Of a DNA stretch of 64,000 bases, positions 7,258 through 34,369 are shown in pieces. Below the pieces are notes generated by a model that was not told the origin of the DNA, searched no databases, and was given only the letters and a program-made list of their open reading frames with translations. The stretch is from Thermodesulfobacteriota bacterium (GTDB lineage Bacteria > Desulfobacterota_D > UBA1144 > Nemesobacterales > UBA2774), in NCBI GenBank assembly GCA_963422265.1, contig OY729416.1, positions 864,001 through 928,000 of the forward strand. Reading direction: 5' to 3'. Numbering within the stretch: the stretch's first letter is position 1; each line of letters opens with the position of its first letter. The translations under genes and the position numbers were made by a program.

Positions 7258-7283
7258 GACGTTGGCCTGCCGAACAGGAATTT

Positions 7284-7322
<39 letters not shown>

Positions 7323-7355
7323 AACTTTTATAATCATAATACCTTCATACCTTCC

Positions 7356-7384
7356 ACTTTAATAACTTCCTAAGTTTTTGTCAA
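7356..7384 (-). promoter_or_regulatory. Putative sigma70 promoter facing the poly-C tract and giant gene
   Basis: TTGACA (7384-7379), 17 nt, TAAAGT (7361-7356), followed by AAGGT and an ATG at 7337. Confidence 0.55.
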
Positions 7385-7405
7385 CAGGACACCCCCTTTT
7401 CTAAA

Positions 7406-7484
7406 TGGGGTGCGTGACCGGACTTGAACCGGCGGCCTCTGGGGCCACAACCCAGTGCTCTAACCAGGCTGAGCTACACGCACC
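7406..7484 (-). tRNA. tRNA-His(GTG)
   Basis: Cloverleaf with anticodon arm CTGGG-TTGTGGC-CCCAG, G-1, C discriminator and encoded CCA. Confidence 0.95.
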
Positions 7485-7552
7485 ACTAATTTAACATAAC
7501 TTATCACAGGGTCTAAATACTAACACACAAACAACAAGAGACAAATAAGGAA

Positions 7553-7626
<74 letters not shown>

Positions 7627-7642
7627 ACGGAAAGAGCCAAAA

Positions 7643-8146
7643 TCAGAATCGTGGGGTGTATGCCAAGTTCTGAAGCCAGAAGTCTATTACGTATTCAACG
7701 CGTGGAAGTAGCATATTACTACGATACTTATCCAAATCAGGCAAGTGCACCCAACGGCATTCTATTATACCTTCTTCTATTTGAGGCGATACGTCAGCGT
7801 CATTACCTTTGTAATGAACCAAAAACCAATGTGTTTTCTTCATATATTTCGTCTTTCTGTGTCTAGTAGTATGCCAGGTGGAAACTAGCTTACCCTTAAT
7901 AGTAAGCTGGTTTTTACCCAACCCGGTCTCTTCGCTAATTTCCCGTAGAGCAGTCTTAACCGCGTCGGAATCGTTATCAAAACGACCCTTTGGTAAATCC
8001 CACGTGCCACGCTTAAATATAAGAAGTATATGATAATTATCATTATAGACCAAGCCACCAGCTGATTTAACCGTGGGCAAGTCCAACGTTTTCTGCAAGG
8101 TAAATTCTTGATCCATAGCCTTATCTATTGAGCTTTTCTCCTCCAT
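7643..8146 (-). CDS. NUDIX hydrolase (Ap4A-hydrolase-like)
   Basis: AGGLV...WDLPKG..D......[11 protein letters not shown] Nudix box. Confidence 0.85.
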
Positions 8147-13606: not shown

Positions 13607-13770
13607 TTCATTGTATCTCCTTTTAGAATAACTATCTAATTAGAATAAATATCTAACGGCTTACCCAAACTAAGCTAGGCTGTCAAGAAATATCCAAAAC
13701 TTGAAAATACAATATCTCAATGTATAATTATACAGGTTTTTTCTACTTAAAGATAAAGGAGGTTAGAACA

Positions 13771-14973
13771 ATGCAAAAGGTCGTAATTAGCGAACCACTA
13801 AGAACCGCTATTGGAGCGTTTGGTGGAACGCTAAAAGACACATCGGCAGCCGAGTTAGGCTCAGTTGTAGTAAAAGAAATACTTGACCGAACTCAGATAG
13901 ACCCCAAAGAAATAGATGATTGTATCATGGGGAACATACTAAGCGCAGGACAAGGAATGAACACGTCTAGGCAGGTAGCGTTAGGAGCCGGATTACCGGT
14001 AGAGACACCCGCCGTTACCATTAACAGAGTCTGCGGATCTGGCGTTCAATCTATCGCCCTAGCCGCTCAGGCTATAAAAGCCGGAGACGCCGATGCCATT
14101 ATCGCAGGTGGCACCGAGAATATGAACCAAGCCCCCTTTTACCTGAAGAAGGCGCGCTACGGATATAGAATGGCAATGCCCAAGGATGAGGTTACCGACG
14201 GGATGGTGTATGACGGGCTATGGGATATATTCAATGATTACCACATGGGCGTAACGGCAGAAAATCTCGCAGAGGCTTTCAATATCACAAAAGAGGAACA
14301 AGACGAGTTTGCGTATAAAAGCCAAATGAAGTGTAAGGAGGCAATGGAGAGTGGAAAATTTAAGGATGAAACAGTCCCCGTAATGATCCCTCAGAGAAGG
14401 GCTGATCCAATCGCATTTGAGAAAGACGAACATCCCAAGGCGGATGCAACTATTGAGGGGCTAGCTAGGCTTCGCGCCGTGTTCAAAGTAGGGGGAACGG
14501 TGTCGGCAGGAAACGCCTCTGGAATCAATGACGGCGCCGCCGCGGTTCTGGTAAGCTCCGCTGAAAAAGCTAAAAAACTAGGATTAACCCCCCTTGCTTC
14601 CATAGTATCTTACGCTGTAGCGGGCGTTGATCCTTCAGTTATGGGTATAGGTCCAGTGCCTGCAATTCAAAAAGCACTCGACAAGGCTAAACTCTCCATA
14701 GACGACATAGATTTATTTGAACTAAACGAGGCGTTCGCCGCCCAATCGCTTGCCGTTTTAAGAGATTTGCCAATACCAGAAGAGAAGATCAACGTCAATG
14801 GGGGCGCTATAGCCCTTGGTCATCCCATTGGTGCTTCGGGAACGAGGATTTTGGTTACGCTTCTTCACGAAATGAAAAAGAGGAAGAAAGCTAAGCGTGG
14901 ACTTGCTGCGCTATGTATCGGCGGCGGAATGGGAATTGCCATTATTGTTGAGAAAGAAAGCAACAGAAAATAA
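13771..14973 (+). CDS. atoB: Acetyl-CoA C-acetyltransferase (canonical thiolase)
   Basis: INRVCGSG, NEAF, GHPIGASG, CIGGG. ATG 13771 follows AAGGAGG. Confidence 0.92.
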   Translation: MQKVVISEPLRTAIGAFGGTLKDTSAAELGSVVVKEILDRTQIDPKEIDDCIMGNILSAGQGMNTSRQVALGAGLPVETPAVTINRVCGSGVQSIALAAQAIKAGDADAIIAGGTENMNQAPFYLKKARYGYRMAMPKDEVTDGMVYDGLWDIFNDYHMGVTAENLAEAFNITKEEQDEFAYKSQMKCKEAMESGKFKDETVPVMIPQRRADPIAFEKDEHPKADATIEGLARLRAVFKVGGTVSAGNASGINDGAAAVLVSSAEKAKKLGLTPLASIVSYAVAGVDPSVMGIGPVPAIQKALDKAKLSIDDIDLFELNEAFAAQSLAVLRDLPIPEEKINVNGGAIALGHPIGASGTRILVTLLHEMKKRKKAKRGLAALCIGGGMGIAIIVEKESNRK

Positions 14974-14983
14974 ATATAGTAAC

Positions 14984-15007
14984 GGTCGGGGAGAAAACTC
15001 CCCGACC
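14984..15007. terminator. Perfect hairpin between convergent genes (probable bidirectional terminator)
   Basis: GGTCGGGGAG-AAAA-CTCCCCGACC, 10-bp stem. Confidence 0.7.
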
Positions 15008-15036
15008 TCCTTAACAAACAGATCTGGGGAAATAGT

Positions 15037-15504
15037 TTAGAACGACTTCTGGGAGAGTTTAATCTCAATATTGTAATCGACAGCCTGAAACAGCTCCTTA
15101 AATCGCTTCGGCACGTGCACCACTTGTCTCCCTTTGTAACTCATAAAGACCAGCCCTGTTTTTGCGACGGCTAATTCCCTTTTAGTCTCCTTTTCGGATA
15201 GCATATAGACCAAATCACACCCTGTATTCGTGTAATCACACACCGCAACGTCTATTATCAAGCTATCTCCATAAAAACCCTCGGACTTATAAACTATAGC
15301 AACGTCTGACAAAACGATCCCTGGCCCGAACACGTCTAATTCGCTAAAGCCAAAACTCTTAAAGAATCTAACCCTTGCCTCGTGCGTTAGCGACAGGACT
15401 GAATCGTGCCCTAAATGACCGCCGTAGTTTATATCACTTATGCGAAGCGCAATCTCCGTTGAAAAAACAAACTTGTCCGGTGCCTCAATTTTTATTCTAG
15501 CCAT
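15037..15504 (-). CDS. Hotdog-fold thioesterase (4HBT-like)
   Basis: RISDINYGGHLGHD...HEAR motif. Confidence 0.85.
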   Translation of the reverse strand: MARIKIEAPDKFVFSTEIALRISDINYGGHLGHDSVLSLTHEARVRFFKSFGFSELDVFGPGIVLSDVAIVYKSEGFYGDSLIIDVAVCDYTNTGCDLVYMLSEKETKRELAVAKTGLVFMSYKGRQVVHVPKRFKELFQAVDYNIEIKLSQKSF

Positions 15505-15510
15505 GTAACG

Positions 15511-16557
15511 CTAAGCACGAAAATACGGTATAATATCCTGTGATATAACCTTAAACGACTCCTTTCTATCTGGGCTAAAATCCCTTAGAAAGAAATGACT
15601 TACTCCAGAGTTGACATACTCTTCAATCCTTCTAATCACCTCTTCCTTCGAACCCGCTATTACAAAATCAAGGACAATTTCACGCGAGTAGTATTTTTCT
15701 CCCATCTCCCTAAATTTTCTAAGCATATCAGGGTCGTTAGGCATAATCTTAGTATATTCAAGACCTTTGTATTGATCCTCAATATCTATATCATAGCCTG
15801 CCTGGGAAAGAAGCTCGGGCCATATTAGCGCGTGCTTAACGGGCTCAAGAGTCGTATAAGCCTCATCTTCATCCCTTGCAATAGATAAGAAGATGAAGAG
15901 AGTTTTTTCAATGGGTCCCAAGCCCTTATCTCTATTTACAGCACCCTCGTCAACGATAAGTGATTTCTCTCTGAAGACCCTCGCAGGCATAGCGTTAGTA
16001 AGCCATCCATCTCCGTACTCTCCGGCGATCTTGAGCGCTCTCGGACCCGTCGCGGCAACGTAGATAGGCAAGCTATCGCCCACAGGTTCAATCCGTAATG
16101 ACGCATCCGACAATTGAAAAAACTCTCCGTCAAAACTAACAGACTCGCCACTCCAGAGAGCGCGCATAATCTTTATGGACTCTACAACCCTTTTTAACGG
16201 CTTATCCCATTTGATTCCGTAGGGGTCTAGATTCATCTTTTCACCGTATCCGAGACATATAAACGTCCTGCCTTTTGAAATATGATCTATGGTAGCGAGT
16301 CTATGAGCAAGGATTGCCGGGTGAATCCTATGAGCATCACCTACAGCTCCCATGTGAATCGCATTTGTTCTAGTTGAAGCGGCGGTTATGACTGACCAGA
16401 CTTCGGGCGTTAACCTCTTAGCCATGAAAACAACGTGATCTGGGAACCAAACTGCATCAAAACCTGCTGTTTCTGCATTTTCTGTAAACGTGATAAGCGT
16501 TTGCGTTGACTCGCCCGGCACGGGAGCAGCTATCCCGAACTTGATCTTCTCACCCAT
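15511..16557 (-). CDS. Luciferase-like (LLM) flavin/F420-dependent oxidoreductase
   Basis: AETAGFDAVWFPDH, ATIDHISKGR, PIYVAATGPRALKIAGEYGDGW. Confidence 0.85.
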   Translation of the reverse strand: MGEKIKFGIAAPVPGESTQTLITFTENAETAGFDAVWFPDHVVFMAKRLTPEVWSVITAASTRTNAIHMGAVGDAHRIHPAILAHRLATIDHISKGRTFICLGYGEKMNLDPYGIKWDKPLKRVVESIKIMRALWSGESVSFDGEFFQLSDASLRIEPVGDSLPIYVAATGPRALKIAGEYGDGWLTNAMPARVFREKSLIVDEGAVNRDKGLGPIEKTLFIFLSIARDEDEAYTTLEPVKHALIWPELLSQAGYDIDIEDQYKGLEYTKIMPNDPDMLRKFREMGEKYYSREIVLDFVIAGSKEEVIRRIEEYVNSGVSHFFLRDFSPDRKESFKVISQDIIPYFRA

Positions 16558-19262: not shown

Positions 19263-21227
19263 ATGGAAAGCAATTTTACATTTGACGGACTCCGAGTAAC
19301 TGCTTTCGAAAGCAGGCGTGCAAAGGAAATCGAGAAACTAATAAGCTACCACGGCGGTATTCCTAGAATTGCTCCCTCTATGAGGGAGATTCCGATAGCA
19401 GAGCCAAAAGAGGCTTTTAAGTTTGCTCAAGAACTATTTGATAACCGCTATGATGTTCTAATACTTATGACGGGCGTAGGAACGCGCGCGCTAGCCAAAG
19501 CTCTAAAGACAAAATATCCGCTGGACGAACTTGTAGCCGCCATAAAAGAAGTAACGACAGTAGCCCGCGGACCCAAGCCGGCTCGGGCGCTGAGAGAGTT
19601 GGGACTAAAACCGGACGTTATCGTGCCCGAACCCAATACGTGGCGGGAAATCCTGAAAACGCTCGATGATAACCTTGACGTCAAGGGCAAGAGTGTAGCC
19701 GTTCAGGAATATGGCGTATCCAACGGGGAGTTCTTGGAAGAGCTAAGTAAACGAGGGGCATCTGTAAAAGCCGTTCCTATCTACAGATGGGGTCTTCCTG
19801 AAGACATAGTACCGCTGAAGAAGGCAATATATTCTATAATAGATAATGGGGAGGACGTATTGCTCTTTACAAGCTCGCAGCAAATACGTCACTTACTTCA
19901 AGTTGCCGATCGAGAGGGGCTACTAGAAGAATTAAAAAAAGGACTTAAGCAAACAATTCTAGCTTCAATAGGACCTGCCACGACGGAAACCCTAAAAGGG
20001 TTTGGGCTTTCCGCAGACTACGAGCCTGACAGCCCTAAGATGGGCAACCTGATACGCGAAACAGCAAGACGCGGAAACAATCTACTAAAAAGAAAAAAGA
20101 TTGCCTATGAGAACGGCGTAAATACGAATGGGTGGAACAGAATTGAAATGGTCTGGGACCATAGATCCGAGGAAACGAGAAAAGAAATCACGCAGAATTC
20201 CATCTTTATGAAAGCCTGTAGAAAGGAGAAGACGGATTACACACCGATCTGGCTCATGAGGCAGGCAGGGAGATTCATGCGTGAGTATAGAGAGCTAAGA
20301 GGGAAAATATCTTTCATGGAGCTTTGTAAAACCCCTGAGCTTGAAGCTGAAGTAACAATTAGCGCAGTCGACCGTCTTGGAGTGGATGCGGCAATAATCT
20401 TCTCGGACATATTACTTATTGTCGAGTCGTTGGGTATAGATCTGGAATTCTCAAATGGAGAGGGACCTAGAATCAAAAGACCGGTGCGCTCGGCCAAAGC
20501 TGTTGCGCGTTTAACGGATTTTGATCCCGAATCACTAAAATTCGTTTACGACGGGATAAAAATCACAAGGAGAGCACTAGACCCTCAAATAGCACTTATT
20601 GGATTCGCAGGAGCTCCATTTACGGTAGCCTCCTACGTAATAGAGGGTAGGGGATCACGCAACTATGAAAATGCAAAGGGTTTAATGTATCGCGACCCTA
20701 AAGCCTGGAATGACCTAATGCAAAAGCTGACGCACGCGACCCAACTATACTTAAACAGGCAAATTGAATCGGGTGCCGATGCAATTCAGTTATTTGATAG
20801 CTGGGTTGGCTGTTTATCCCCCCATGACTATAAGGAATTTGTGCTGCCCCATGTGAAAACCCTGATAGATGGAATTAAGGATGACGTCCCTGTAATACTT
20901 TTTGGCACGGGAACCAGCTCACTATTGGAACTAATAAAAGAATCCGAAAGCCACGTCATAGGGCTTGACTGGAGGGTTGACATAGACAAGGCATGGGAAC
21001 TGCTCGGAAGCAAAGTAGCCGTGCAGGGAAACCTCGATCCCGTTACCCTTTTTGCCAATCCTGAAGAGATTAAAAAAAGAGCCAGGTTTATATTGGACAA
21101 AGTTGACGGTAGACCAGGACACATATTCAACCTGGGACACGGTGTGCTACCCAGAACCCCAGTTGATAACGTGCTTGCCCTCATAGATTTCGTGCATGCA
21201 TACTCAGATAGGAAACATATCTTATAA
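19263..21227 (+). CDS. hemE: Fused uroporphyrinogen-III synthase (HemD-like) and uroporphyrinogen decarboxylase (HemE)
   Basis: N-terminal part with ARGPKP, YRW.LPED, SIGP.T.E.L (HemD). C-terminal part with PIWLMRQAGR, FSDIL, QGNLDP, IFNLGHG (HemE). Confidence 0.9.
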   Translation: MESNFTFDGLRVTAFESRRAKEIEKLISYHGGIPRIAPSMREIPIAEPKEAFKFAQELFDNRYDVLILMTGVGTRALAKALKTKYPLDELVAAIKEVTTVARGPKPARALRELGLKPDVIVPEPNTWREILKTLDDNLDVKGKSVAVQEYGVSNGEFLEELSKRGASVKAVPIYRWGLPEDIVPLKKAIYSIIDNGEDVLLFTSSQQIRHLLQVADREGLLEELKKGLKQTILASIGPATTETLKGFGLSADYEPDSPKMGNLIRETARRGNNLLKRKKIAYENGVNTNGWNRIEMVWDHRSEETRKEITQNSIFMKACRKEKTDYTPIWLMRQAGRFMREYRELRGKISFMELCKTPELEAEVTISAVDRLGVDAAIIFSDILLIVESLGIDLEFSNGEGPRIKRPVRSAKAVARLTDFDPESLKFVYDGIKITRRALDPQIALIGFAGAPFTVASYVIEGRGSRNYENAKGLMYRDPKAWNDLMQKLTHATQLYLNRQIESGADAIQLFDSWVGCLSPHDYKEFVLPHVKTLIDGIKDDVPVILFGTGTSSLLELIKESESHVIGLDWRVDIDKAWELLGSKVAVQGNLDPVTLFANPEEIKKRARFILDKVDGRPGHIFNLGHGVLPRTPVDNVLALIDFVHAYSDRKHIL

Positions 21228-24083: not shown

Positions 24084-25052
24084 CTAGACCAGCGAACTTC
24101 TTACAACGAGCGCGTGCACGTCTTCGGCACAGCCCCACGAAAGGGTGAAACCAGCCCCGCCGTGACCGTAGTTATGTATTAAGACACAACTACCGGAAAT
24201 TCTCTCAAGCTCAAGTCGGACTTCCACTCTTCCAGGACGAAGTCCAACCTTGTGATCTAATACCTCAGCATCATTTAGATTAGGTTCAAGGATTTTACAC
24301 TTTCTTAGAATTTCCTCAGCCGTGGTGGGATCTATTTCAAGACTCCAATTGTTTTCTTCAGCCGTTCCACCTAGAATACAATCGTTGGTGCGGGGAACGA
24401 CGTAAGAAACCGCAAGAGGTCCTAGCTCGTCATTTATGCACCGGCTCAAACCGGGGTTAGTCGTTCTTATGATTTGTCCCCTTATGGGGAATGAGTCTTT
24501 ATCGTTACAAATCTTTCTGCTTCCCAAACCTGAGCAATTAACTATTAAGTCCCCAAGACCGCATAATTCTTTAACTGAGTCAATTTCTTTCTCCAATTTT
24601 TCAATACTGCCGCCCATATTAAGGAAGGTTCGCACCAGATAACCCATATACAAAGGGGTTTCTATAATTGGAACTTCGGCCATGAAACCATCTACGTAAT
24701 CTTTGGGCAACTCCTCTGAATTTAAGCGCCTAAAGGAGCGCACCACAGATTTCCAGAAAGGATCACTCATGGGATGGGAAAAGATCTTTACAAGTTCGAA
24801 CATAGATACGCCGGTTTCAGGATTCTCTTTGAGCTCAAGAAACCTTTGATAGGAAAGCGAAGCCCATCTAAGCACCTTATCACGAGGGGAGACCTTATAT
24901 GGATACCAATAAGCCGCAGCCACGTCTGAGGTAGTTTTAGGGGGTAGAGACACAGCTACTATCTTAACTGCAAAATCACTCTCCAGTAGCTTGATCCCAG
25001 TGGTAAGACCTGAAACCCCGCATCCTAGAATAATGACTTTTCGCTTTTTCAT
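24084..25052 (-). CDS. D-amino-acid oxidase family FAD oxidoreductase
   Basis: G.GVSGLTT, TTSDVAAA.W, P.RGQ, VGLRPGR, HNYGHGGAG.TLSWGCA. Confidence 0.88.
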   Translation of the reverse strand: MKKRKVIILGCGVSGLTTGIKLLESDFAVKIVAVSLPPKTTSDVAAAYWYPYKVSPRDKVLRWASLSYQRFLELKENPETGVSMFELVKIFSHPMSDPFWKSVVRSFRRLNSEELPKDYVDGFMAEVPIIETPLYMGYLVRTFLNMGGSIEKLEKEIDSVKELCGLGDLIVNCSGLGSRKICNDKDSFPIRGQIIRTTNPGLSRCINDELGPLAVSYVVPRTNDCILGGTAEENNWSLEIDPTTAEEILRKCKILEPNLNDAEVLDHKVGLRPGRVEVRLELERISGSCVLIHNYGHGGAGFTLSWGCAEDVHALVVRSSLV

Positions 25053-25112
25053 TTTTCGCCTACTTATCAAAAGCTACCTAAATTGCTCACTTGTAGATTA
25101 TAATACCTTATT

Positions 25113-26123
25113 ATGGTCAAATTTATTGATGAGGCTAATATATACCTAAAGGCTGGGGATGGAGGAAGGGGGTGCATCAGCTTTAGGAGAGAAAAATACG
25201 TCCCACGCGGGGGACCAAACGGGGGCGATGGGGGCAATGGCGCAAACGTAGTTATAGTAGCAAGGCGAAATATGTCTTCTCTACTCGACCAGCGTTATCA
25301 GCGACATTACAAAGGCAAAAGAGGAGCACACGGCAGAGGGAAAAATCAGCACGGAAAGAACGCCGAAGAGCTATATATCCCCGTGCCGGTGGGCACACTT
25401 ATAAAAGACCTTGAAACTGGAGAAACTCTCGGAGACCTAACAAAAGACGGCGAAACCTTGATTGTAGCTAAGGGTGGAAAAGGTGGGAAAGGAAATGCTC
25501 GGTTCGTAAGCTCTACTAACCAAGCTCCAAAAAACGCCGAGCCGGGTGGAGAGGGAGAAGAGAAAACGCTCCTGTTAGAACTGAAGCTACTCGCAGACGT
25601 AGGGATAGTAGGTTTTCCAAATGCCGGCAAATCTATGCTAATCTCAAGAATTTCGGCGGCGAGGCCTAAAGTCGCTGATTACGCCTTTACTACCCTTGTT
25701 CCAAATTTAGGGGTTGTAAGCTACCATGATGGGAAGACGTTCGTAGTGGCAGACATTCCGGGATTAATCGAAGGTGCACACGCAGGCACAGGACTTGGCA
25801 CACAGTTTCTAAGACATATTGAGCGCACAAAAATCCTGATTCATTTGCTGGACCTATCACCGACTACAAATAGAGACCCCGTTCGAGACTTCCAAGTCAT
25901 TAACAAAGAGCTTAAAGACTACAGCGAGCGATTATCAAGAAAGTTCCAGATTATCGCGGCGAATAAAATAGACATAATAGATGCGAGGGAAAGACTTGAA
26001 GAAACCTACGCTCACTTTAAGGATAAGGGAATAAAGATTTTTCCCATCTCATCAATAACAGGTGAAGGAGTAAAAGAACTCATAGATGAATTAGTTAAAA
26101 ATCTTGATAAAAAACTACAGTAG
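25113..26123 (+). CDS. obgE: GTPase Obg/CgtA
   Basis: FRREKYVPRGGP, GFPNAGKS, DIPGLIEGA, NKID. Confidence 0.96.
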   Translation: MVKFIDEANIYLKAGDGGRGCISFRREKYVPRGGPNGGDGGNGANVVIVARRNMSSLLDQRYQRHYKGKRGAHGRGKNQHGKNAEELYIPVPVGTLIKDLETGETLGDLTKDGETLIVAKGGKGGKGNARFVSSTNQAPKNAEPGGEGEEKTLLLELKLLADVGIVGFPNAGKSMLISRISAARPKVADYAFTTLVPNLGVVSYHDGKTFVVADIPGLIEGAHAGTGLGTQFLRHIERTKILIHLLDLSPTTNRDPVRDFQVINKELKDYSERLSRKFQIIAANKIDIIDARERLEETYAHFKDKGIKIFPISSITGEGVKELIDELVKNLDKKLQ

Positions 26124-26287
26124 CGTAGTTGGGAAAATTGTTATATTAAATGCAATCGGTCAAACTCCGTTGCAAACCGAAATACCCAGAGATAACAGAT
26201 CGCAGCAGTAGAAAATCCTGAATAAGCGGTTACAATGTTACAATATGTTTTCTCAAAATAAACGTTTTGACAAGGAGGTAGGTAATA

Positions 26288-26635
26288 TTGCTATACGATA
26301 GAAAGATAGACTTCAGCAAGTCAAAAAAAGATGAATGGGAGTTATTAGTATCCAAGATAGGAGATGGCATCGAACTGCCTTTGCCAGATTCTGAGCGCTG
26401 GTTTCGCGCCAGCATAGACGGAGAGACGATAAGAATTGAGAGTGCTAAGCACAATGCCCGACCCATAATGATATACGACCCCATAATTATTAAGTTTGAT
26501 GAGTTCCACACGGTCGCTACTCATTACAACAGTTTTCTTGAACTTCAGGTTAAAACAATGAGCGATACCCACGAGGTCAGGGAGAACTCGCCTAATCTGA
26601 AATACATATTTATGATTATCTATCACCTGCTATAG
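26288..26635 (+). CDS. Hypothetical protein
   Basis: 115-aa ORF, TTG start after AAGGAGGT. No family recognised. Confidence 0.65.
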   Translation: MLYDRKIDFSKSKKDEWELLVSKIGDGIELPLPDSERWFRASIDGETIRIESAKHNARPIMIYDPIIIKFDEFHTVATHYNSFLELQVKTMSDTHEVRENSPNLKYIFMIIYHLL

Positions 26636-26772
26636 ACAAACCCACAGGGCAAGCGTTTATATCCCCCGAAGGTAATTGTTAATTATTATTGAGAGTGAGA
26701 AATGGGGGGGGGGGAGGAGGAAGGCAAAGAATAATAAACCTATATTAGGAGATAGCCAGTTTTTAAGCAGCT

Positions 26773-26836
26773 AAAAAAAAGGGGGGAAGGGGAGGTGGCG
26801 AGGTTTATCCTTCTCATGCCACTTCCCTATCCCACC
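26773..26836 (-). terminator. Intrinsic terminator of the AmiS/UreI end of the operon
   Basis: Minus strand GGTGGGATAGGGAAGTGGC...GCCACCTCCCCTTCCCCCC followed by T8. Confidence 0.7.
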
Positions 26837-26860
26837 AATACTCTTATCCACACTTATACT

Positions 26861-27403
26861 CTACCCACCAGCACTAAGAGCCGTTATCGGACCCCACGTG
26901 CCCGTCAATAACAACATACCAGGCAACATTAACGTCAACACCGACTCTATCAAAAATAACCACGCTACCGTCGGTCCCAATGCCTTCCCCAAAGAAAATA
27001 CCAAAAATACCAAAAATACTAACAATGCCCATGACCAACAAAATAAAGCATAATACATCATACCAGGAATCGCTCCCTCCAATCCATAAAAATGAAATCC
27101 ATACCAAACAAACACTACCGTAGCAAATAAACAATACCAACCCAAACCCTTCGCATCATGACCATGTATGAATATCCCCGCCACCATCAAATATATCAAC
27201 GCAAATACCGATACCAATGCCGTCGCCGCCGTTAAGTCCAACTCATGCAACTTCCACGCCGCTATCAATATCAATATCGCTACGCCTAAGTTTAATACCC
27301 CTACCTCCTTCGCACCCGTCTTCCCCAATACCGTCATACCATTACAAAAAAATACAAATCCTACCAACAACAATACATAACCCAACAACATATCTATTCC
27401 CAT
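26861..27403 (-). CDS. AmiS/UreI family small-solute channel
   Basis: Six hydrophobic helices, LL.VG.V...NG, KEVGVLN, DAKGLGWYCLF, WSWALL, PG.LLL.G.W. Confidence 0.85.
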   Translation of the reverse strand: MGIDMLLGYVLLLVGFVFFCNGMTVLGKTGAKEVGVLNLGVAILILIAAWKLHELDLTAATALVSVFALIYLMVAGIFIHGHDAKGLGWYCLFATVVFVWYGFHFYGLEGAIPGMMYYALFCWSWALLVFLVFLVFSLGKALGPTVAWLFLIESVLTLMLPGMLLLTGTWGPITALSAGG

Positions 27404-27544
27404 CTTCCTCCTTACCTCCTTATAATATGAGTTTTCTTACCTCTTTCTTTTCTTCTTCTTTTCCCACTCTTCTCCCCTACCCCTCTACTCTTTTAACACA
27501 CTTCACTACCCCATGTCAAGATACTTTTTACCTCACCCTCCAAT

Positions 27545-28000
27545 TTACCCCTCACCACGACGCCTTACCAGTATCACCCACTTCCCAACCTGTACCACCT
27601 CTCCACCCTGATTATATACCTTTACCTCAAATATCAAAAATCCCATCCCTCCTCGCTTATGCTCACGCTTCTCCAATAACTCACGCCTCACATGAACTGT
27701 GTCCCCTAACTTCACCGCCCCTGAAAACCGCCAATCCTCCAATCCCATAAACGCCACTGTCCCCAAACGCGGCATCGTAAACCATAAACCCGATGCTATA
27801 GATAATACACACAAACCATGCGCTACACGCCCCTTAAACACCGTACCACGCGCAAACTCCTCATCCACATGCATATCGTTAAAATCCCCAGATAAACCAG
27901 CAAAACCCACTACGTCTGCCTCGGTCACCGTCCGACCACTGCTCTCATGTACCTCCCCCACCTCTATATCCTCATATAACAACCGCACTGCTTCACCCAT
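27545..28000 (-). CDS. MaoC-like (R)-hydratase/dehydratase
   Basis: RTVTEADV..FAGLSGDFNDMHVD..FA....F.GRVAHG hydratase-2 motif. Confidence 0.9.
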   Translation of the reverse strand: MGEAVRLLYEDIEVGEVHESSGRTVTEADVVGFAGLSGDFNDMHVDEEFARGTVFKGRVAHGLCVLSIASGLWFTMPRLGTVAFMGLEDWRFSGAVKLGDTVHVRRELLEKREHKRGGMGFLIFEVKVYNQGGEVVQVGKWVILVRRRGEG

Positions 28001-28439
28001 CCCTATTTACCCCCTCCTTCTTTACAGGCTTGAACTTCGGTAACGTTACCTCATCCGTTACGTCATCAAACACTACCTCCACCTCCATACCTATATAAAC
28101 ATCTCCAGCCTCTACTCCCACCACGTTCGTCATTATCTTTACACCTTCCCCCAGCTCCACTAACGCAACCACATACGGCGGCTCGCCCTTATACGCCTTC
28201 GTCGGACCCATGTGGTGCACCGCATACGTCCACACCTTACCTAACCCCCGAGAACGCACCCACTCTATCTCTTTACTCATCTCTTCCCCAGGACTATACG
28301 CACGCGGATAAAAAAAATACTCCCCACTTACCTTACTCCTTGGTATCAATAACTCATGCCCCTTACATCCCTCCCAATACCGCCGCGTCTCCGGACGAAA
28401 ATCCGGCAACGGCTTCCCATATCCTCTCGCCTCACTCAT
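27993..28439 (-). CDS. DUF35 (ChsH2 C-terminal-like) OB-fold protein. The rubredoxin Cys pairs appear absent
   Basis: KPLP....TRRYWEG....EL, G.V.TY.V.H, PPYVVALVEL.EG...MTN, IGMEVEVVF. CxxC positions read SKVS and SPGE. Confidence 0.85.
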   Translation of the reverse strand: MSEARGYGKPLPDFRPETRRYWEGCKGHELLIPRSKVSGEYFFYPRAYSPGEEMSKEIEWVRSRGLGKVWTYAVHHMGPTKAYKGEPPYVVALVELGEGVKIMTNVVGVEAGDVYIGMEVEVVFDDVTDEVTLPKFKPVKKEGVNRDG

Positions 28440-28458
28440 CGCTTGTCTCTCCCTCCTC

Positions 28459-29661
28459 TTATGTTAATGCCTGATTCCCTAATACTACCGTGCTGTGCGC
28501 AGACACTATACCACCATTCCCATGAACTAACGCTACCTCGGAACCCTCTACCTGCCTATCCCCACAATCACCTCGCAACTGCAACACCGCCTCCACTACA
28601 TGGTGCATCGCTCCCAAATGTGCCTGTGATAACAAACCCCCATGCGTGTTCACAGGTAAATCCTTACCTATCTCCATCCGCCCCTCCAAAGAAAACGCAC
28701 CCCCCTCCCACTTAGGCACAAAACCCAACCCCTCTAACTCTAACAATACCGTTATCGTAAAACAATCATACAAATACGCTATATCCACGTCACCCACACC
28801 TATACCTGCCGTCTCAAACGCCCTACCCCCAGACCTTCCTATCGCCTCATATATCTGATCCAAACCATCAAGACTCGTCAAATACTGATGTGAATACCCC
28901 TGCCCCATACCCCATAAATACGCTAGCTTATTCTCTATCCCCAGCTCCCGCGCCTTATCCTCCGTCGTTACTATAAACGCCGCTCCACCATCTGATATTA
29001 TAGAACAATCATACTTCGTCAACGGCTCCGCTATCACCCTAGAACTCAACACTTCCTCTATGCTCAACGGCTCCTTATTCATCGCATTCTCTTTCAACCC
29101 CGCATGCTTACGCATCGTTACTGCTACAGAAGCTAAATGCTCCCGACTACATCCACTCTCATACAAATACCGCTGTGCCGCTAACGCATATCCACCAGGC
29201 GTCGTTAATCCATAAGGATACTCAAACTCACCATGACACATCTCGCGTATCAAAGCCACCATACCTGAAGACGATATACCAGATAACGTGTTATCTCCGC
29301 GCACACATAATACTACCTCCGCCTGACCCGTTGCTATCGCCATCGCCGCCTCCGCTACCATCCACACCGCCGTCGCACCCCCTACTGCTACCGATGAAAA
29401 AAAACGAGGCCGCATACCAAAATAATCTGCAAACGTCGTGCAGTGCATAAACGTATGCTCCACCAATGAAAACGCCGTTACTAATCCATCCACTTCCCCC
29501 TTCTTTATCCCTGCATCCTCTATAGCCAACTTCGACGCCTGTGATAAAAAATCAAATGAACTACGACCCGATATACGCCCCTGCTCCGTCTCACCAACTC
29601 CTGCTATTACTACACCCTTCCCCTTTAATACCTCCCGCGCTTCCTTCATATCGCTACCCAT
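28459..29661 (-). CDS. SCP-x/Ltp2-type thiolase-like protein
   Basis: IAGVGET, DCS.ISDGGAA, LYDCFT, NTHGGLLS.AH. The usual nucleophile position reads VGGAT (no Cys). Start 29661 follows AGGAGG (ORF track start 29691). Confidence 0.88.
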   Translation of the reverse strand: MGSDMKEAREVLKGKGVVIAGVGETEQGRISGRSSFDFLSQASKLAIEDAGIKKGEVDGLVTAFSLVEHTFMHCTTFADYFGMRPRFFSSVAVGGATAVWMVAEAAMAIATGQAEVVLCVRGDNTLSGISSSGMVALIREMCHGEFEYPYGLTTPGGYALAAQRYLYESGCSREHLASVAVTMRKHAGLKENAMNKEPLSIEEVLSSRVIAEPLTKYDCSIISDGGAAFIVTTEDKARELGIENKLAYLWGMGQGYSHQYLTSLDGLDQIYEAIGRSGGRAFETAGIGVGDVDIAYLYDCFTITVLLELEGLGFVPKWEGGAFSLEGRMEIGKDLPVNTHGGLLSQAHLGAMHHVVEAVLQLRGDCGDRQVEGSEVALVHGNGGIVSAHSTVVLGNQALT

Positions 29662-29726
29662 ATCTCTATACCCCCCTCCTTCCTTATTCATAATTTTTGA
29701 AAACTAAGATCTGTTTCTAAAAGAAA

Positions 29727-29755
29727 AATCTATCTCATTCTATTCCGATTGTCAA
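29727..29755 (-). promoter_or_regulatory. sigma70 promoter of thiolase-DUF35-MaoC unit, overlapped by inverted repeats
   Basis: TTGACA (29755-29750), 17 nt, TAGATT (29732-29727). Confidence 0.6.
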
Positions 29756-29867
29756 TAATGACATAGAATGACGATATGTCTATATAGTGTGGTGTGATAT
29801 GAACTCACTACACCTTATACCTATTCTTCTCCATAATACCCATTCTTCTCCATAACCCCTACTACAT

Positions 29868-29908
29868 AAAAAAAGCAGGAGCCCCTTATATCACAAAGAG
29901 ACCCCTGC
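29868..29908 (-). terminator. Intrinsic terminator after the ADC-like gene pair
   Basis: GCAGGGGTCTCTT-loop-AAGGGGCTCCTGC followed by T7 on minus strand. Confidence 0.8.
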
Positions 29909-29951
29909 CACTTTACTTATATTAATCGCCTGCTCTCCTAAATACTACAAC

Positions 29952-30923
29952 CTACCCCTGTGAATACTGTGGCAACAAGAACCTATGGCGCATCGTATAC
30001 TTAAACGGCGTAGAATACAATATCTGACCCAAATCATCATCACCACGCTCTACCGTCTTACTCCATATCGTTAACGCAGGTGGTATTATCAAATTAAACG
30101 TGAAACTTATCAATCCCACTACCTCAGTCGCAGGTATCTGACCACCCATAAAATCAAATGGAGTCCCTGACATATACCACGAACGTATATCTCCACCCGT
30201 AGCCGTCCGGATACTCTCAGGATTTAACTGAAAACGATGCCCTGTCCCAAAACCAGGTGGTAAGTCTGATGGCAAATACGTTACCTCATGGATACTGTTA
30301 CTTACATCAGGCCGCGTCGTTATCCTGTAATTCATTCGACCCCAATCCGTCTTACCATAAAACGTCGGCCGCGTCGATAACGGCTTGTCAGAATACCGCC
30401 CATTAGCCGTGTGTAGTATATATCCCCTACGCTCCATCAAATGATTAAAATAATTGTTGTTCGTCCCATGCTCAAAACCCGCTATATATGCAGCCTTCTT
30501 TGGAAATCCAAACGGCTCCTTACCCGCAAATATAGGAGAATCATTAGACAAATACATATATGGATAATATCCAGCCTTGTATATCTGCCCATCTCCTGAA
30601 TCTACCGTAGCTGAAAACGTTACTCCCATCTCCATATACGGACCCAACATCGTGTTACGATGTATCACATACCAAAACTCTATTACATCATCCTGCACCT
30701 CTATCGGCTCAGGAACTACCGCCTTCATACTGCTTATGTCCGCTCGTACTACATAAGCCATCCAACGACTCTCTGTATACGTCAACGGTATTATGTCATA
30801 GTCAAATACAGGATCCGCCACACCTTGAGATATGATGTGAATCCTATCCCTATCTCGAGGCAAAGGTGGTACCTCCCCCTCTGCCAACCATGGATAGCTA
30901 TATTCATTCGCTTGTAATCCCAT
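29952..30923 (-). CDS. Acetoacetate decarboxylase-like superfamily protein (paralog 2)
   Basis: VVPEP, GPYMEMG, YMYL.ND.PI.AGKEPFGFPKK (Schiff-base Lys motif). Confidence 0.8.
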   Translation of the reverse strand: MGLQANEYSYPWLAEGEVPPLPRDRDRIHIISQGVADPVFDYDIIPLTYTESRWMAYVVRADISSMKAVVPEPIEVQDDVIEFWYVIHRNTMLGPYMEMGVTFSATVDSGDGQIYKAGYYPYMYLSNDSPIFAGKEPFGFPKKAAYIAGFEHGTNNNYFNHLMERRGYILHTANGRYSDKPLSTRPTFYGKTDWGRMNYRITTRPDVSNSIHEVTYLPSDLPPGFGTGHRFQLNPESIRTATGGDIRSWYMSGTPFDFMGGQIPATEVVGLISFTFNLIIPPALTIWSKTVERGDDDLGQILYSTPFKYTMRHRFLLPQYSQG

Positions 30924-30977
30924 TGCTTTTAACCTCCTAATTTCGTTTTTGTTTCTCTCCTCTAAAACTACTCACCC

Positions 30978-31949
30978 CTATGACCCCTGACTGATTGGAA
31001 ACTGCTGACGTAATCCATACTTATATGGCGTCGCATATCCACGATAACTCGCAGGACGCTCATATGTCTCCGTCCATAATACATTCGCAGGAGGTATGAT
31101 TAAATCAAATACAAACGATATCAAACCCGTTACCTCCTGTACCTTTAGCTCTGCTCCCATATTGTCAAATGGCGTCGCCTGCATAAACCAGTTTATCGCA
31201 TCTCCAGACGCCGTCCGCGTGTGCTCAGGCTTGATCTGAAAACGATGCCCCTTTACGTTAAATATCGCAGGTAACTCCGATGGCAAATACGTTAACTGCC
31301 ACTCTGAACTAGATACGTCCGGACGCGTTATTACCTTCATGTTAAACTTGCCCCAGTCCACCTTACCATAAAAATGTGGCGGCGTTACTTGCTTGTCGTC
31401 AAACTGACCCGTCGCACTGTGCATCAAATACCCATTCCGAGACATAGCAAATCCAAAGAAATCCGTCCCCTTCTCTCCACCGTGTACCGTGCAACGTATA
31501 TATGACATCTTCTTCGGAAATCCTAATACTCGCCCCGCATCTACAGGCGCATCGCCCGTCAAATACATATACGGATAATATCCAGCCTTGTACACATTAC
31601 CACGTGGATCCTTATACGTCGCCGATATCGTTACTCCAAACTCCAAATATGGACCCAACATCGTGTTCTTATGATCCACATACCAAAACTCTACTAAATC
31701 AGCATTCTCCCCATCCCATACCTCTAATGGCGGATTCGGACATAAACGCTGACGCGTACCCTCATCCACCCTTACTACAAACGCCGACCAACGACTATCT
31801 GTATATGTCAGAGGAAGAACGTCTATATCCCACAACGGATCCGATGGATTCGCTATGATCCATGACTTTATGTCACGCTCTATTGGAGGAGGTGGAACCT
31901 CCTTCGTGAGTTCCCAATACTTCGTAGGAACGTTAAGATGACTTGGCAT
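30978..31949 (-). CDS. Acetoacetate decarboxylase-like superfamily protein (paralog 1)
   Basis: GPYLEFG, YMYLTGDAPVDAGRVLGFPKK. Collinear with 29952..30923. Confidence 0.8.
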   Translation of the reverse strand: MPSHLNVPTKYWELTKEVPPPPIERDIKSWIIANPSDPLWDIDVLPLTYTDSRWSAFVVRVDEGTRQRLCPNPPLEVWDGENADLVEFWYVDHKNTMLGPYLEFGVTISATYKDPRGNVYKAGYYPYMYLTGDAPVDAGRVLGFPKKMSYIRCTVHGGEKGTDFFGFAMSRNGYLMHSATGQFDDKQVTPPHFYGKVDWGKFNMKVITRPDVSSSEWQLTYLPSELPAIFNVKGHRFQIKPEHTRTASGDAINWFMQATPFDNMGAELKVQEVTGLISFVFDLIIPPANVLWTETYERPASYRGYATPYKYGLRQQFPISQGS

Positions 31950-32207
31950 AGTCTTAATACCTCCTTACTTAAATAGTTTTTTGACCAGATTACCAACCCT
32001 TCTATATCATCTACATCTCTATATCATCTAATACCACTCTATACGATAAACTATAATACAATAACACTAATTATTATACAATCTAATTGCTCCTACTTAA
32101 TCCTACCTATCTAACACCTACCTAATAATACCACTTATAACAAATCCCATCACTCCTTGTCAAGAACTATTTGTTAAATTAAAAATGATCTTGGAATCTG
32201 TAGTTGC

Positions 32208-32840
32208 TCAGAATTTTATTAACTCCCTAAACGTGCCGAAAAGAATCTTCAAGTCCGTTATAAAACTCATTTCTGTTATGTACTTTTTACAGAACGCTAC
32301 TTTTTGGGGAAGGATAATAGTATTGTGTGCATATTCTACGTCATCGTATCCCACAAGAATCTCTTCTTCGTTTCTATACATAAGCGAGGCGTAACCCGTA
32401 ATGCCGGGTCTTATGCTTAGAATCAATGAATCATCACCCTGAAACTCATCTACAACCTTTTTTACCCATGGTCTTGGTCCTACAAGACTCATATCGCCTT
32501 TAATAACGTTTAATATCTGGGGAATCTCGTCAAGTTTGTACTTCCTCAGTATCTTGCCAAGTGGCGTTACTCTCTTGTCATCGCTCGACGTTATGTAAGG
32601 ACCTTTCTTGTCGGCATCTTTTATCATGCTTCTAAATTTATAGAACTTAAAGACCCTTCCCGATCTACCCACCCTTAACTGCGTAAATAGAACCGAACCC
32701 TCGCTATCACACTTTATCAGGATAGAGATCAAAAGGATCAGAGGAGAGAGAATAATTAGCAAAGGCAAAGAGATAACCAAATCAAGTGCGCGCTTTCCCC
32801 GCTTGGCGTAAAAACCCTCTTTAGTATCTTTTTTATTCAT
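32208..32840 (-). CDS. Bacterial sugar (phosphoglycosyl) transferase, PglC/WcaJ-C-terminal type
   Basis: KRALD, YKFRSM, LRKYKLDEIPQ..NV.KGDMSLVGPRP, PGITG. Confidence 0.92.
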   Translation of the reverse strand: MNKKDTKEGFYAKRGKRALDLVISLPLLIILSPLILLISILIKCDSEGSVLFTQLRVGRSGRVFKFYKFRSMIKDADKKGPYITSSDDKRVTPLGKILRKYKLDEIPQILNVIKGDMSLVGPRPWVKKVVDEFQGDDSLILSIRPGITGYASLMYRNEEEILVGYDDVEYAHNTIILPQKVAFCKKYITEMSFITDLKILFGTFRELIKF

Positions 32841-33021
32841 ATTAAAAAAGTCAGTAGCGTTGTCTCAGAAGATGGTCTTTGATACTTTACTCTCAATCCA
32901 CATATAGATATTTCCTAACTCAACTTTCAGCAACATTTTGCGTTTCCCGTCAATCTCCTCTCTTAATCTCATATTATCACTATTTCAGCAACTGATTATA
33001 ATCGCACACCAGTCAGAGTCC

Positions 33022-33765
33022 CTATGCCCCGTCTGAACGAAGCCGCATCTGGATTCTCTTTGCCCTGTCAGCATCCCCTTTCTTCATAAGGTAATTAACA
33101 TAGCTCAGGGCAACTTCATCTGGTATATTCATCTTTGTTTCAACGCGCTGCCATACTAGGTAAGTTGCGTCTAGCATGTCTTTTGCAACTAGGTATCTCA
33201 GATAGTCACCCAGCGTCTCGTCAGATACCACCCTGCGCAGGATTAGATCATAATCGTCTATTAACTCATGACATATATCAAAAACCCTTTGCCTTCTCTT
33301 GGGATCGGCTTTGGCCACCATCTTTAACATATCCGTTGCAAGCTCAATATCACCTAGCGAAAAAGCTAAGAGAGAGGACTCCCATAGCAGCCCGATCGAC
33401 GAAGGAATAAGACCTCTTGCTCTAGTCAGAGCCAAATGGGCTTTGTTATCTTCATCCATCTCAATTAAAGTCTCTGCAAGTCCAATCCATGCGACTGTAA
33501 ACAGAGGATTCTCCCTAAGAGAATTTACGTATATCTCTTTGATCCGTTCTTCCTCTTCTGTCATGAAGAACTGGTTAATTCGAGCTATCTTGTAGGTCGC
33601 CAGGGCATTACTTTGGTTAAAGGACAATCCCTTTTCTATAGATTCTATATCTTCTCTATCAGCCAGAACAGATGAAATGCCTAAACGCAATACGACTAGC
33701 ATAATAATAAGGCTAAGAGCTATAAGAACTACTATTTGACTCTTGCAATTTAGGAATTTCGCCAT
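33022..33765 (-). CDS. Membrane-anchored TPR-like protein
   Basis: N-terminal TM then helical repeats (ENPLFTVAWIGLAE, ADPK). Confidence 0.6.
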   Translation of the reverse strand: MAKFLNCKSQIVVLIALSLIIMLVVLRLGISSVLADREDIESIEKGLSFNQSNALATYKIARINQFFMTEEEERIKEIYVNSLRENPLFTVAWIGLAETLIEMDEDNKAHLALTRARGLIPSSIGLLWESSLLAFSLGDIELATDMLKMVAKADPKRRQRVFDICHELIDDYDLILRRVVSDETLGDYLRYLVAKDMLDATYLVWQRVETKMNIPDEVALSYVNYLMKKGDADRAKRIQMRLRSDGA

Positions 33766-33844
33766 TTTTTAACTTAGTGCTTAAAAGCCTTACGCCGCGG
33801 TTTCATGACAACTACTAACTCACTAACTTCCTTACTCCTAGTAG

Positions 33845-34369
33845 CTAGCGCGATAGAGCCTCCAGCTTTTCCCCTGCCTCCACTGTCTCTATACCTTTTT
33901 CGGTTACTGCCTCCATACTACCCTCATTCACCCATAACTCTATCCCTGACCTATTAATTCTTATTGTCCCCCTTACCCTTGATGTGCTTGCTTTTGCTAT
34001 CCCTAAAGTCCTAAAATCCCCTTCCCGTGTATTGAAACTTAACGCTCTCTTGCTAGGCTTAACCCTAAAATGAATGACTCCCTTGCTTACCTGCAACGCC
34101 AGAACTTCGCTCTCTTCCAATACTTTCAACTCAGAGCCTTTTTCTATTACAAAACTCGCTCCCCTCACGCGCATTAACACTTTCTGATCGTATCCTAGCT
34201 TCGTCCCTGACGTTACAGGAAGGGTATATGCCTGACCATCCCTTTTAACTAAAGTAACTCTTCCAATAAGGGTGCTTGCAGATGATGCCTCTTCTGCGAC
34301 AAGCAGCAACATAAGTATTACGAATACCGATAAAAGCTTAAATGCTTTACTCCTAAACGTAAAAATCAT
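33845..34369 (-). CDS. Exported protein with FecR-like beta region
   Basis: Signal peptide, L..G.IHF.V, V.EGS.E......ETVEAGE pattern. Confidence 0.5.
   Translation of the reverse strand: MIFTFRSKAFKLLSVFVILMLLLVAEEASSASTLIGRVTLVKRDGQAYTLPVTSGTKLGYDQKVLMRVRGASFVIEKGSELKVLEESEVLALQVSKGVIHFRVKPSKRALSFNTREGDFRTLGIAKASTSRVRGTIRINRSGIELWVNEGSMEAVTEKGIETVEAGEKLEALSR

Follow-up and report, generated by a model that had tools for sequence, protein, structure and literature searches.

A duplicated, codon-biased gene set of Dadabacteria combines a new subfamily of the acetoacetate decarboxylase fold with a Sal-type aldolase and an AmiS/UreI-family channel

We analysed a 64,000-nucleotide stretch of DNA from a Thermodesulfobacteriota bacterium (contig OY729416.1, positions 864,001 to 928,000; hereafter the window) and found that six minus-strand genes at 26773..32165 belong to a real, conserved and uncharacterised gene set. 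The families are known: two paralogs with the acetoacetate decarboxylase (ADC) fold, ADC1 and ADC2, a thiolase-fold aldolase, a DUF35 protein, a MaoC-type hydratase and an AmiS/UreI-family channel. The nearest described system is Sal-Shy, and the ADC pair represents a new subfamily. The six genes form two cassettes, ADC1-ADC2 and aldolase-DUF35-MaoC-channel, each present in two copies in the genome, and they are part of a wider set that lies outside the window (a second thiolase/DUF35 pair, an acyl-CoA dehydrogenase, a CoA ligase, Sir2, nitroreductase-fold proteins and the electron-transfer flavoprotein, ETF). We believe, with a probability of about one half, that this module is the entry section of the main carbon and energy route of Dadabacteria, for a small neutral carbonyl compound.

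The host genome is a single 1.78-Mb contig, 99.4% complete, with a GC content of 44%. It holds a second copy of the module at C1:1299022-1305622, in two blocks that are 99.5% and 99.9% identical to the window, in the order aldolase, DUF35, MaoC, channel, an extra thiolase, ADC1, ADC2. Because the order differs at the second site and the copies fall in two blocks, we regard the two cassettes as the unit. The repeat boundary in the window lies at about 32180, and the duplicated segment begins just upstream of the ADC-cassette promoter. We also inspected the best 80 of 126 ADC1 relatives, many of them on short contigs; the closest (78-96% identical) come from records labelled Candidatus Dadabacteria or Thermodesulfobacteriota metagenome-assembled genomes (MAGs). 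ADC2 adjoins ADC1 in 79 of the 80 loci, ADC1, the aldolase, DUF35 and MaoC occur together in 41, and all six genes lie within 10 kb of ADC1 in 36. This linkage, which recurs across phyla, supports the conserved neighbourhood on which the preliminary description of this DNA had staked its proposal. That description had also called the six genes self-contained. This part does not stand: loci with linked genes show 13 different arrangements, the window order occurs in none of the 80, and further partners lie outside the window. While its gene families held, it had overlooked that the genes are duplicated and bear an extreme codon signature of high expression. For 18 other two-copy genomes, median ADC1 DNA identity is 99.7% within a genome versus 90.7% between genomes, which is the pattern of concerted evolution.

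Three observations concern the surroundings of the two copies. In a second sequencing run, of unrecorded kind, an even depth of about 28-36 rises to 50-59 over the module and breaks at the repeat borders; this fits two module copies, but the run may be the source sample itself. A 179-residue orphan without a Pfam match (C1:1298438-1298977) follows the ADC pair at copy 2 and in 11 of the 80 loci, often on the opposite strand. Copy 2 also has biotin, LsrF and Zn-ADH genes beside it; their codon use is ordinary, and they are not recurrent neighbours at other loci.

The codon use of the module is extreme. C occupies 1-3% of fourfold sites in the module versus 21% genome-wide. When genes were ranked by a codon score whose training set consisted of 35 ribosomal-operon, EF-Tu and GroEL genes and excluded the module, ranks 1-16 of 1419 went to the 12 module copies, 2 EF-Tu genes and 2 GroEL genes, with the channel gene at rank 1. 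Replication-strand bias alone is insufficient to explain this signature because neighbouring genes on the same strand have ordinary codon use. Additionally, ADC1 has a lower fourfold C content than every non-module gene of its own locus in 58 of 75 loci, and across loci the bias is strongest in the ADC pair, followed by the channel and the second thiolase. These results suggest that the module genes are highly expressed. No sequencing run recorded as RNA contains the window stretch. One run that we guess to be RNA gave, at contig level, a depth of about 40-1300 over the module (bin means 79-2169), 0-26 in the flanks and 27 over EF-Tu; we do not count it as evidence, as it was found with a module query, the depth of contigs gives no ranking of genes and we can only guess that it is RNA.

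The gene set is widespread in the class. Among 120 class genomes, ADC1 matches occur in 89 (85 of them strong) and aldolase matches in 80; ADC and aldolase are both present in 73, ADC only in 12, the aldolase only in 7 and neither in 28. Among 31 hand-picked, near-contiguous assemblies (at most 7 contigs), 30 have both and one has neither, although these are mostly from one genus and not independent. A marine family with genomes of 0.8-1.1 Mb has matches in 15 of 19 genomes for each of the ADC1 and aldolase queries; there the module genes form a single block that also contains the second thiolase and DUF35, a nitroreductase-fold gene, Sir2, an aldehyde dehydrogenase and the acyl-CoA dehydrogenase. 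For 85 genes compared with one 1-Mb marine relative, the median identity is 47%, and the top six are ADC1 (79%), ADC2 (76%), the second thiolase (74%), MaoC (73%), a nitroreductase-like unknown (73%) and the aldolase (72%). GroEL is 78% identical in another marine relative. When genes are duplicated, homogenised, as well conserved as GroEL and similar to EF-Tu in codon use, they usually point to the key substrate of an organism. This matters for Dadabacteria, a group common in seawater, sponges, sediments, groundwater and soils whose substrate is unsettled. A paper on Dadabacteria proposes heterotrophy on proteins and carbohydrates, and the accessible part of it does not bring in F420, propionate or acrylate (10.1101/2020.06.22.165886).

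ADC1 (30978..31949) and ADC2 (29952..30923) are long-form ADC-fold proteins of 323 residues each, both on the minus strand (PF06314, E 8.6e-20 and 2.5e-20), and are 50% identical to one another. Lys146 and Glu103 of ADC1 align with K115 and E76 of 3bh2. The GFPKK motif with the Schiff-base lysine is kept in 77 of 77 ADC1 and 73 of 73 ADC2 sequences, as is the Glu76 equivalent. Other active-site columns have changed: the Arg29 column, which we take to be the carboxylate site of acetoacetate decarboxylase, holds Ser52, with an Arg one residue further on, and the Glu61 column holds Trp. Both proteins score 29.3 and 54 bits against the NCBIfam ADC model NF002614, versus a cut-off of 150. A search of 1.84 billion representatives returned a few full-length clusters, which scored 336-566 bits, along with fragments, and then ordinary ADC-like proteins at no more than about 90 bits; the ESM Atlas returned generic ADC clusters only. 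A structural model of the Desulfofundulus homolog, which was modelled in place of the window proteins (pLDDT 81.5), has the ADC fold and matches 3bgt and 3bh2 at E ~2e-17; its matches to true ADCs and to MppR-like aldolase-dehydratases are of similar strength. Thus, by sequence criteria, the pair is a small, separate and new ADC subfamily of about 320 residues. The two genes are inherited together in tandem, including the pairs in other lineages, and ADC1 is predicted to be one subunit of a two-subunit enzyme with ADC2.

The aldolase gene lies at 28459..29691 on the minus strand, with its start probably at 29661. The best PDB matches of the protein are 4u4e, Ltp2 (6ok1) and Sal (9myr). The site of the nucleophilic cysteine reads GGATAV, without Cys, in all 38 copies. 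Y308-D-C310-F aligns with YDCY of Sal, and a His stands at the position of Ltp2 Tyr344. The Tyr-Asp-Cys dyad of the YDC motif is catalytic in Sal and is present in TbSLP as well, according to the available portion of PMC12329534. By alignment, then, the thiolase-like protein is an aldolase of the Sal/SLP type. Its best lipid-transfer model score is 263 versus a cut-off of 469. Its DUF35 (OB-fold) partner is encoded at 27993..28439 (PF01796, E 9.2e-20) and a MaoC-type (R)-enoyl-CoA hydratase at 27545..28000 (PF01575, E 1.1e-27, with PDB relatives), both on the minus strand; the D-x-N-x-x-H hydratase motif of MaoC is present in 36 of 36. The preliminary reading of C-C cleavage or formation is borne out.

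The channel gene, at 26861..27403 on the minus strand, encodes 180 residues (PF02293, E 5.5e-27, 95.3 bits versus a cut-off of 25). Its pairwise alignment with HpUreI is full-length but weak. In this alignment, L13 has become F in 120 of 120 homologs, T87 has become I in 120 of 120, and W153 is replaced, mostly by V (as in the window protein) and otherwise by T, L or C, with Trp in none of the 120, while the equivalents of L6, N16, F84, Y88 and W149 are kept. T87, W153 and their like are presumably the residues that line the urea filter. Judged from these residues, the pore is more hydrophobic than that of HpUreI in all 120 homologs. No urease is present anywhere in the 99.4%-complete genome, which extends to the genome what had been said of the window, and no amidase is among the recurring neighbours of the module. 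Urea or an amide, one branch of the earlier proposal, is thus disfavoured as the substrate.

ADC homologs (41-56% identical), here too in pairs, occur in records with the names Thermoleophilia, Miltoncostaeaceae, Desulfofundulus luciae, D. thermocisternus, Desulfobacteria, Nitrososphaeria, Archaeoglobaceae and Geoglobus ahangari. Near-identical matches labelled Spirochaetia, Ruegeria, Bathyarchaeota and Methanosuratincola are probably mis-binned Dadabacteria contigs. For the phylum to which one archaeal-labelled MAG belongs, 400 genomes were sampled, and those searched gave no match to the pair. We examined 80 of 306 metagenome loci from outside Dadabacteria, mostly high-GC and many on short contigs. 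There the pair has as neighbours DctP of TRAP transporters (36), cofD (28), EamA (25), cofH (21), an FNR-like gene (21), CbbO (10) and CbbQ (7). RepA and ParA flank it at 13 and 16 loci, like those of the plasmid described next, and the ADC cluster seems to be plasmid-borne in many freshwater and soil Thermoleophilia. One anaerobe locus carries an acyl-CoA dehydrogenase 56% identical to that of the host, an HMGCS-like/thiolase/DUF35 trio, ETF and an FeS oxidoreductase; an archaeal-like locus carries a nitroreductase with 56% identity to that adjoining the acyl-CoA dehydrogenase of the host.

Nearly the whole gene set is found on a 46.6-kb plasmid with 44 genes, NZ_CP064358.1, of the cultured marine strain Miltoncostaea oceani SCSIO 61214. 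Of 72,556 plasmids it alone matches ADC1, and it ranks first among 594 aldolase matches. It carries both ADCs, the aldolase, DUF35, MaoC, the acyl-CoA dehydrogenase, a CaiC-like CoA ligase, Sir2 and a second thiolase trio, and host orthologs are 46-59% identical for the ADCs, MaoC, DUF35, acyl-CoA dehydrogenase and CoA ligase. It also encodes a BadI/MenB-like hydrolase, two short-chain dehydrogenases/reductases (SDRs), two aldehyde dehydrogenases, an aminotransferase, acetolactate synthase, a TRAP transporter, cofCDEGH, an FNR-like protein and CbbQ/VWA, and it has no annotated LLM, FDOR or Fno enzyme. The channel is absent from it, and no AmiS match was found in the plasmids searched. A CbbQ gene and a split CbbO/VWA pair stand beside the ADC genes in Thermoleophilia (NZ_CP064358.1 35210-38920); no host ortholog of them was found. 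This plasmid opens the substrate question to plasmid curing and growth tests.

Based on these findings, we propose a model for the module. The compound would enter the cell through the channel. ADC1-ADC2 would then bind its carbonyl group as a lysine Schiff base and make or break the adjacent C-C bond, a reaction suggested by the fold, modelled for the homolog, and by the conserved lysine; this may be a slow first step, which would call for very large amounts of enzyme. The aldolase, DUF35 and MaoC, by the chemistry established for their families, would interconvert a carbonyl compound and acetyl- or propionyl-CoA with a 3-hydroxyacyl-CoA and an enoyl-CoA. Finally, the acyl-CoA dehydrogenase with ETF, an SCP2-type thiolase with the second DUF35, the CoA ligase with Sir2, and an aldehyde dehydrogenase would complete the conversion to acetyl-CoA and propionyl-CoA. 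We favour an entry section because both types of lyase handle carbonyls, the channel and the lyases are the most biased genes, and the partners lead to short acyl-CoAs. The link to CoA metabolism suggested earlier is upheld. Both products can be assimilated by the host, which encodes a fused isocitrate lyase-malate synthase (a 1421-residue frame at C1 ~701000-705331, minus strand, with an isocitrate-lyase motif and a malate-synthase domain), propionyl-CoA carboxylase (PCC) and methylmalonyl-CoA mutase, the mutase being present in 5 of 5 small genomes. The likeliest substrate class, at about one in three, is a C3-C5 methyl ketone (acetone, butanone) or a short branched oxo compound.

Several points weigh against this proposal. 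We infer the substrate and direction at every step, the order of the steps and the ADC1:ADC2 heteromer. Codon bias is a proxy for expression, kin genomes are not independent, and the extreme bias is not seen in the acyl-CoA dehydrogenase or the CoA ligase. Direct reversal of acetoacetate decarboxylation is thermodynamically uphill. A simple route from acetone to 3-hydroxy-3-methylglutaryl-CoA (HMG-CoA) is closed because HMG-CoA lyase was not found in the host genome. The aldolase, the first DUF35, MaoC and the channel occur in none of the 80 metagenome loci, within the available and often short contigs; on the M. oceani plasmid over 10 kb separate the aldolase from the ADC pair, which may account for the absence of the aldolase from short loci. 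The TRAP transporter that M. oceani has in place of the channel points to an anionic substrate there. Moreover, its aldolase has YDSF, not YDCF, and this change abolished CtSal activity in the part of PMC12329534 that is available. Two further candidates were rejected: acetone use through methylcrotonyl-CoA carboxylase and HMG-CoA lyase, as the lyase is missing and the carboxyltransferase resembles PCC, and an ethylmalonyl-CoA pathway in marine relatives, where the second mutase gene is more likely a MutA/B partner. No hydantoinase B of the size of acetone carboxylase is present in the host, which has a single one of 523 residues.

A possible but less probable explanation is that the genes serve to degrade a larger carboxylic acid, branched or cyclic, in a Sal/Shy-like manner: the acid would be taken up, ligated to CoA, dehydrogenated, hydrated and cleaved by retro-aldol reaction, with the ADC pair handling a released oxo fragment and the channel exporting a small product. 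Sal and Ltp2 are known to work in this direction, according to the available text of PMC12329534, and the TRAP transporter, CaiC-like ligase, dehydrogenase, SDRs, aldehyde dehydrogenases and BadI/MenB-like hydrolase of the plasmid, together with the recurring DctP, would suit an acid; a Thr before the catalytic Glu of the acyl-CoA dehydrogenase in 30 of 30 sequences suggests a roomy pocket. However, it is the ADC pair, not the ligase or dehydrogenase, that is most biased, conserved and duplicated, which would be unusual for a clean-up enzyme, and the host has no BadI ortholog (best match 32%). We consider it unlikely that ADC1-ADC2 is instead an F420-using redox enzyme acting on a Schiff-base-bound substrate. 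The cof genes beside the pair and on the plasmid, which lacks the usual annotated F420 enzymes, and a CofD-family gene in 120 of 120 class genomes would fit such a role, but PF01933 also covers non-F420 proteins and occurs in 11 of 14 control genomes. Besides cof genes, the host carries other possible users of F420, namely seven LLM genes and an Fno-like gene. At two anaerobe loci cof genes are lacking in the vicinity, and we know of no ADC-fold redox enzyme.

A little less likely again is a reading prompted by the channel family, in which the module takes up and degrades a small nitrogen compound such as an amide or a lactam. The plasmid aminotransferase has a 58% identical host ortholog, the aldehyde dehydrogenase of the marine cluster matches betaine-aldehyde and aminobutyraldehyde models best, below their cut-offs, and the genome holds nitrilase-family genes and one hydantoinase B. 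Conversely, urease and a neighbouring amidase are missing, as noted above, and T87 and W153 of HpUreI are never kept. We find it very improbable that an ordinary acetoacetate decarboxylase, making waste acetone, stands by chance beside an unrelated aldolase operon. True ADCs are the top structural and profile matches, and the cassettes have separate promoters and rearrange; yet the NCBIfam scores fall far below the cut-off, Arg29 is replaced by Ser, the linkage recurs in a second phylum, and a 1-Mb oligotroph would have little reason to discard acetoacetate. Returning to an entry section for a small neutral carbonyl compound, we tentatively extend it, well short of even odds, to an undescribed core metabolism of this cosmopolitan and uncultured lineage: channel-fed, oxygen-independent activation of a small ketone (acetone or butanone, for example) without acetone carboxylase, a monooxygenase or a thiamine diphosphate (TDP)/B12 route, using a new two-subunit Schiff-base enzyme, possibly F420-coupled and with a CbbQ/CbbO-type activase, and spread by plasmids to Thermoleophilia, thermophilic sulfate reducers and archaea.

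The six open reading frames, each with a Shine-Dalgarno site, were found co-oriented as first described, and all six pass Pfam cut-offs (ADC twice, Thiolase_N/C_1, OB_ChsH2_C (DUF35), MaoC and AmiS_UreI), which upholds the family assignments. A probable sigma-70 promoter of the ADC cassette (TTGACA, 18-nt spacer, TG-n-TATAAG) lies at 32134..32163, a probable aldolase-cassette promoter (TTGACA-17-TAGATT, 10 of 12 consensus matches) at 29727..29755, and a possible internal promoter of the channel gene (TTGACA with a weak -10) at 27490..27519, all on the minus strand. The preliminary claim of three own promoters is partly sustained: the hexamers are present at 32163, 29755 and 27519, but only 29755 passes a consensus scan. 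A fourth TTGACA at 31168 lies within ADC1 (4 versus 1.6 expected), and the scan of 25000-34000 gave 20 sites versus 17.8 +/- 4.3 by chance. Because only one site passes and the total equals chance, we call the promoters plausible and no more. Both intrinsic terminators described earlier, on the minus strand, fold well and have a U-tract. One ends the ADC cassette at 29866..29909 (14-pair stem with a T-run, -22.6 kcal/mol) and is the only one listed by the scan; the other, at 26773..26836 (-27.6 kcal/mol), ends the module and the duplicated segment at the repeat boundary. The untranslated leaders 31950-32133 and 29756-29865 show extreme C-depletion and G/T richness, as in the coding strand.

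Some neighbouring features deserve mention. An unnamed nitroreductase-like family of 435-455 residues, without a Pfam or NCBIfam match and with no PDB match for its profile, has three host paralogs, at C1:513450-514817, 532235-533545 and 1456294-1457601, and members elsewhere at L088:13885-15231 and L227:12204-13550; it is 73% conserved. Two anaerobe loci have it next to the ADC pair, and four marine genomes have it next to the CoA ligase. Window positions 13720-16557, 10 kb from the module, hold a classical acetyl-CoA thiolase, a small hot-dog-like gene and an F420-type LLM oxidoreductase; an LLM paralog at C1:1697819 is 64-72% conserved in small genomes. A 654-residue gene at 19263-21227 looks by eye like a uroporphyrinogen-III synthase-uroporphyrinogen decarboxylase fusion. 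Positions 1-8000 have a GC content of 54-61%, versus 44% for the genome, and large internal repeats.

Our literature search agrees with the earlier statement that no described pathway joins these parts, for Dadabacteria and Miltoncostaea included. It covered neither most subscription papers nor supplements, which may list the genes. The accessible parts of PMC4103992 and PMC5264521 do not join them, and the acetone proteome paper on Desulfococcus biacutus mentions neither AmiS nor acetoacetate decarboxylase. Work on this module would provide functions for a new ADC subfamily, a small-molecule Sal-type aldolase and a non-urea AmiS/UreI channel.

Each part of the module resembles a known system and departs from it. 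The ADC pair shares its fold (TM 0.74-0.79 by target length) and the Lys-Lys and Glu76 equivalents with the acetoacetate decarboxylases of C. acetobutylicum (3BH2) and C. violaceum (3BGT), but the window proteins are about 80 residues longer, are tandem paralogs, have 19-23% identity and fall below the family cut-off. MppR (4JM3), Sbi00515 (4ZBO/6EEJ) and Swit_4259 (5UPB) share the fold and lysine and are a precedent for aldol chemistry, whereas their identity in structural alignment is 12-18% and there is a large score gap to ordinary ADC-like proteins. The tandem Sso1221/Sso1222 is a precedent for a pair of the ADC superfamily induced in a catabolic cluster, in the available part of PMC7820114. 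The channel shares its Pfam family with HpUreI and AmiS (3UX4, 6NSJ) and differs by the L13, T87 and W153 changes, the missing urease and the missing adjoining amidase.

Thiolase-fold and DUF35 proteins are also paired in PhlABC, BbsAB and the archaeal thiolase/HMGCS/DUF35 complexes, and the second thiolase of the wider set is of this type. The window protein cannot work like these complexes because the acylating Cys is absent, and its BbsB model score is 149.7 versus a cut-off of 750; the PhlBC/BbsAB comparison made earlier is therefore dropped. No steroid genes are among the recurring neighbours, a statement that covers the neighbourhoods and not a genome-wide search for steroid-ring genes. 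The closest likeness is to Sal-Shy of Comamonas testosteroni (9MYR) and Ltp2-ChsH1/ChsH2 (6OK1), which also have a Cys-less aldolase, DUF35, MaoC and a linked acyl-CoA dehydrogenase. Unlike in those systems, DUF35 and MaoC are separate genes here, the YDHF motif and second Tyr of Ltp2 are replaced by YDCF and a His (at the position of Ltp2 Tyr344 and Sal Gln352), and the aldolase stands with an ADC pair and a small-solute channel, exists in two copies and is marked by extreme codon bias.

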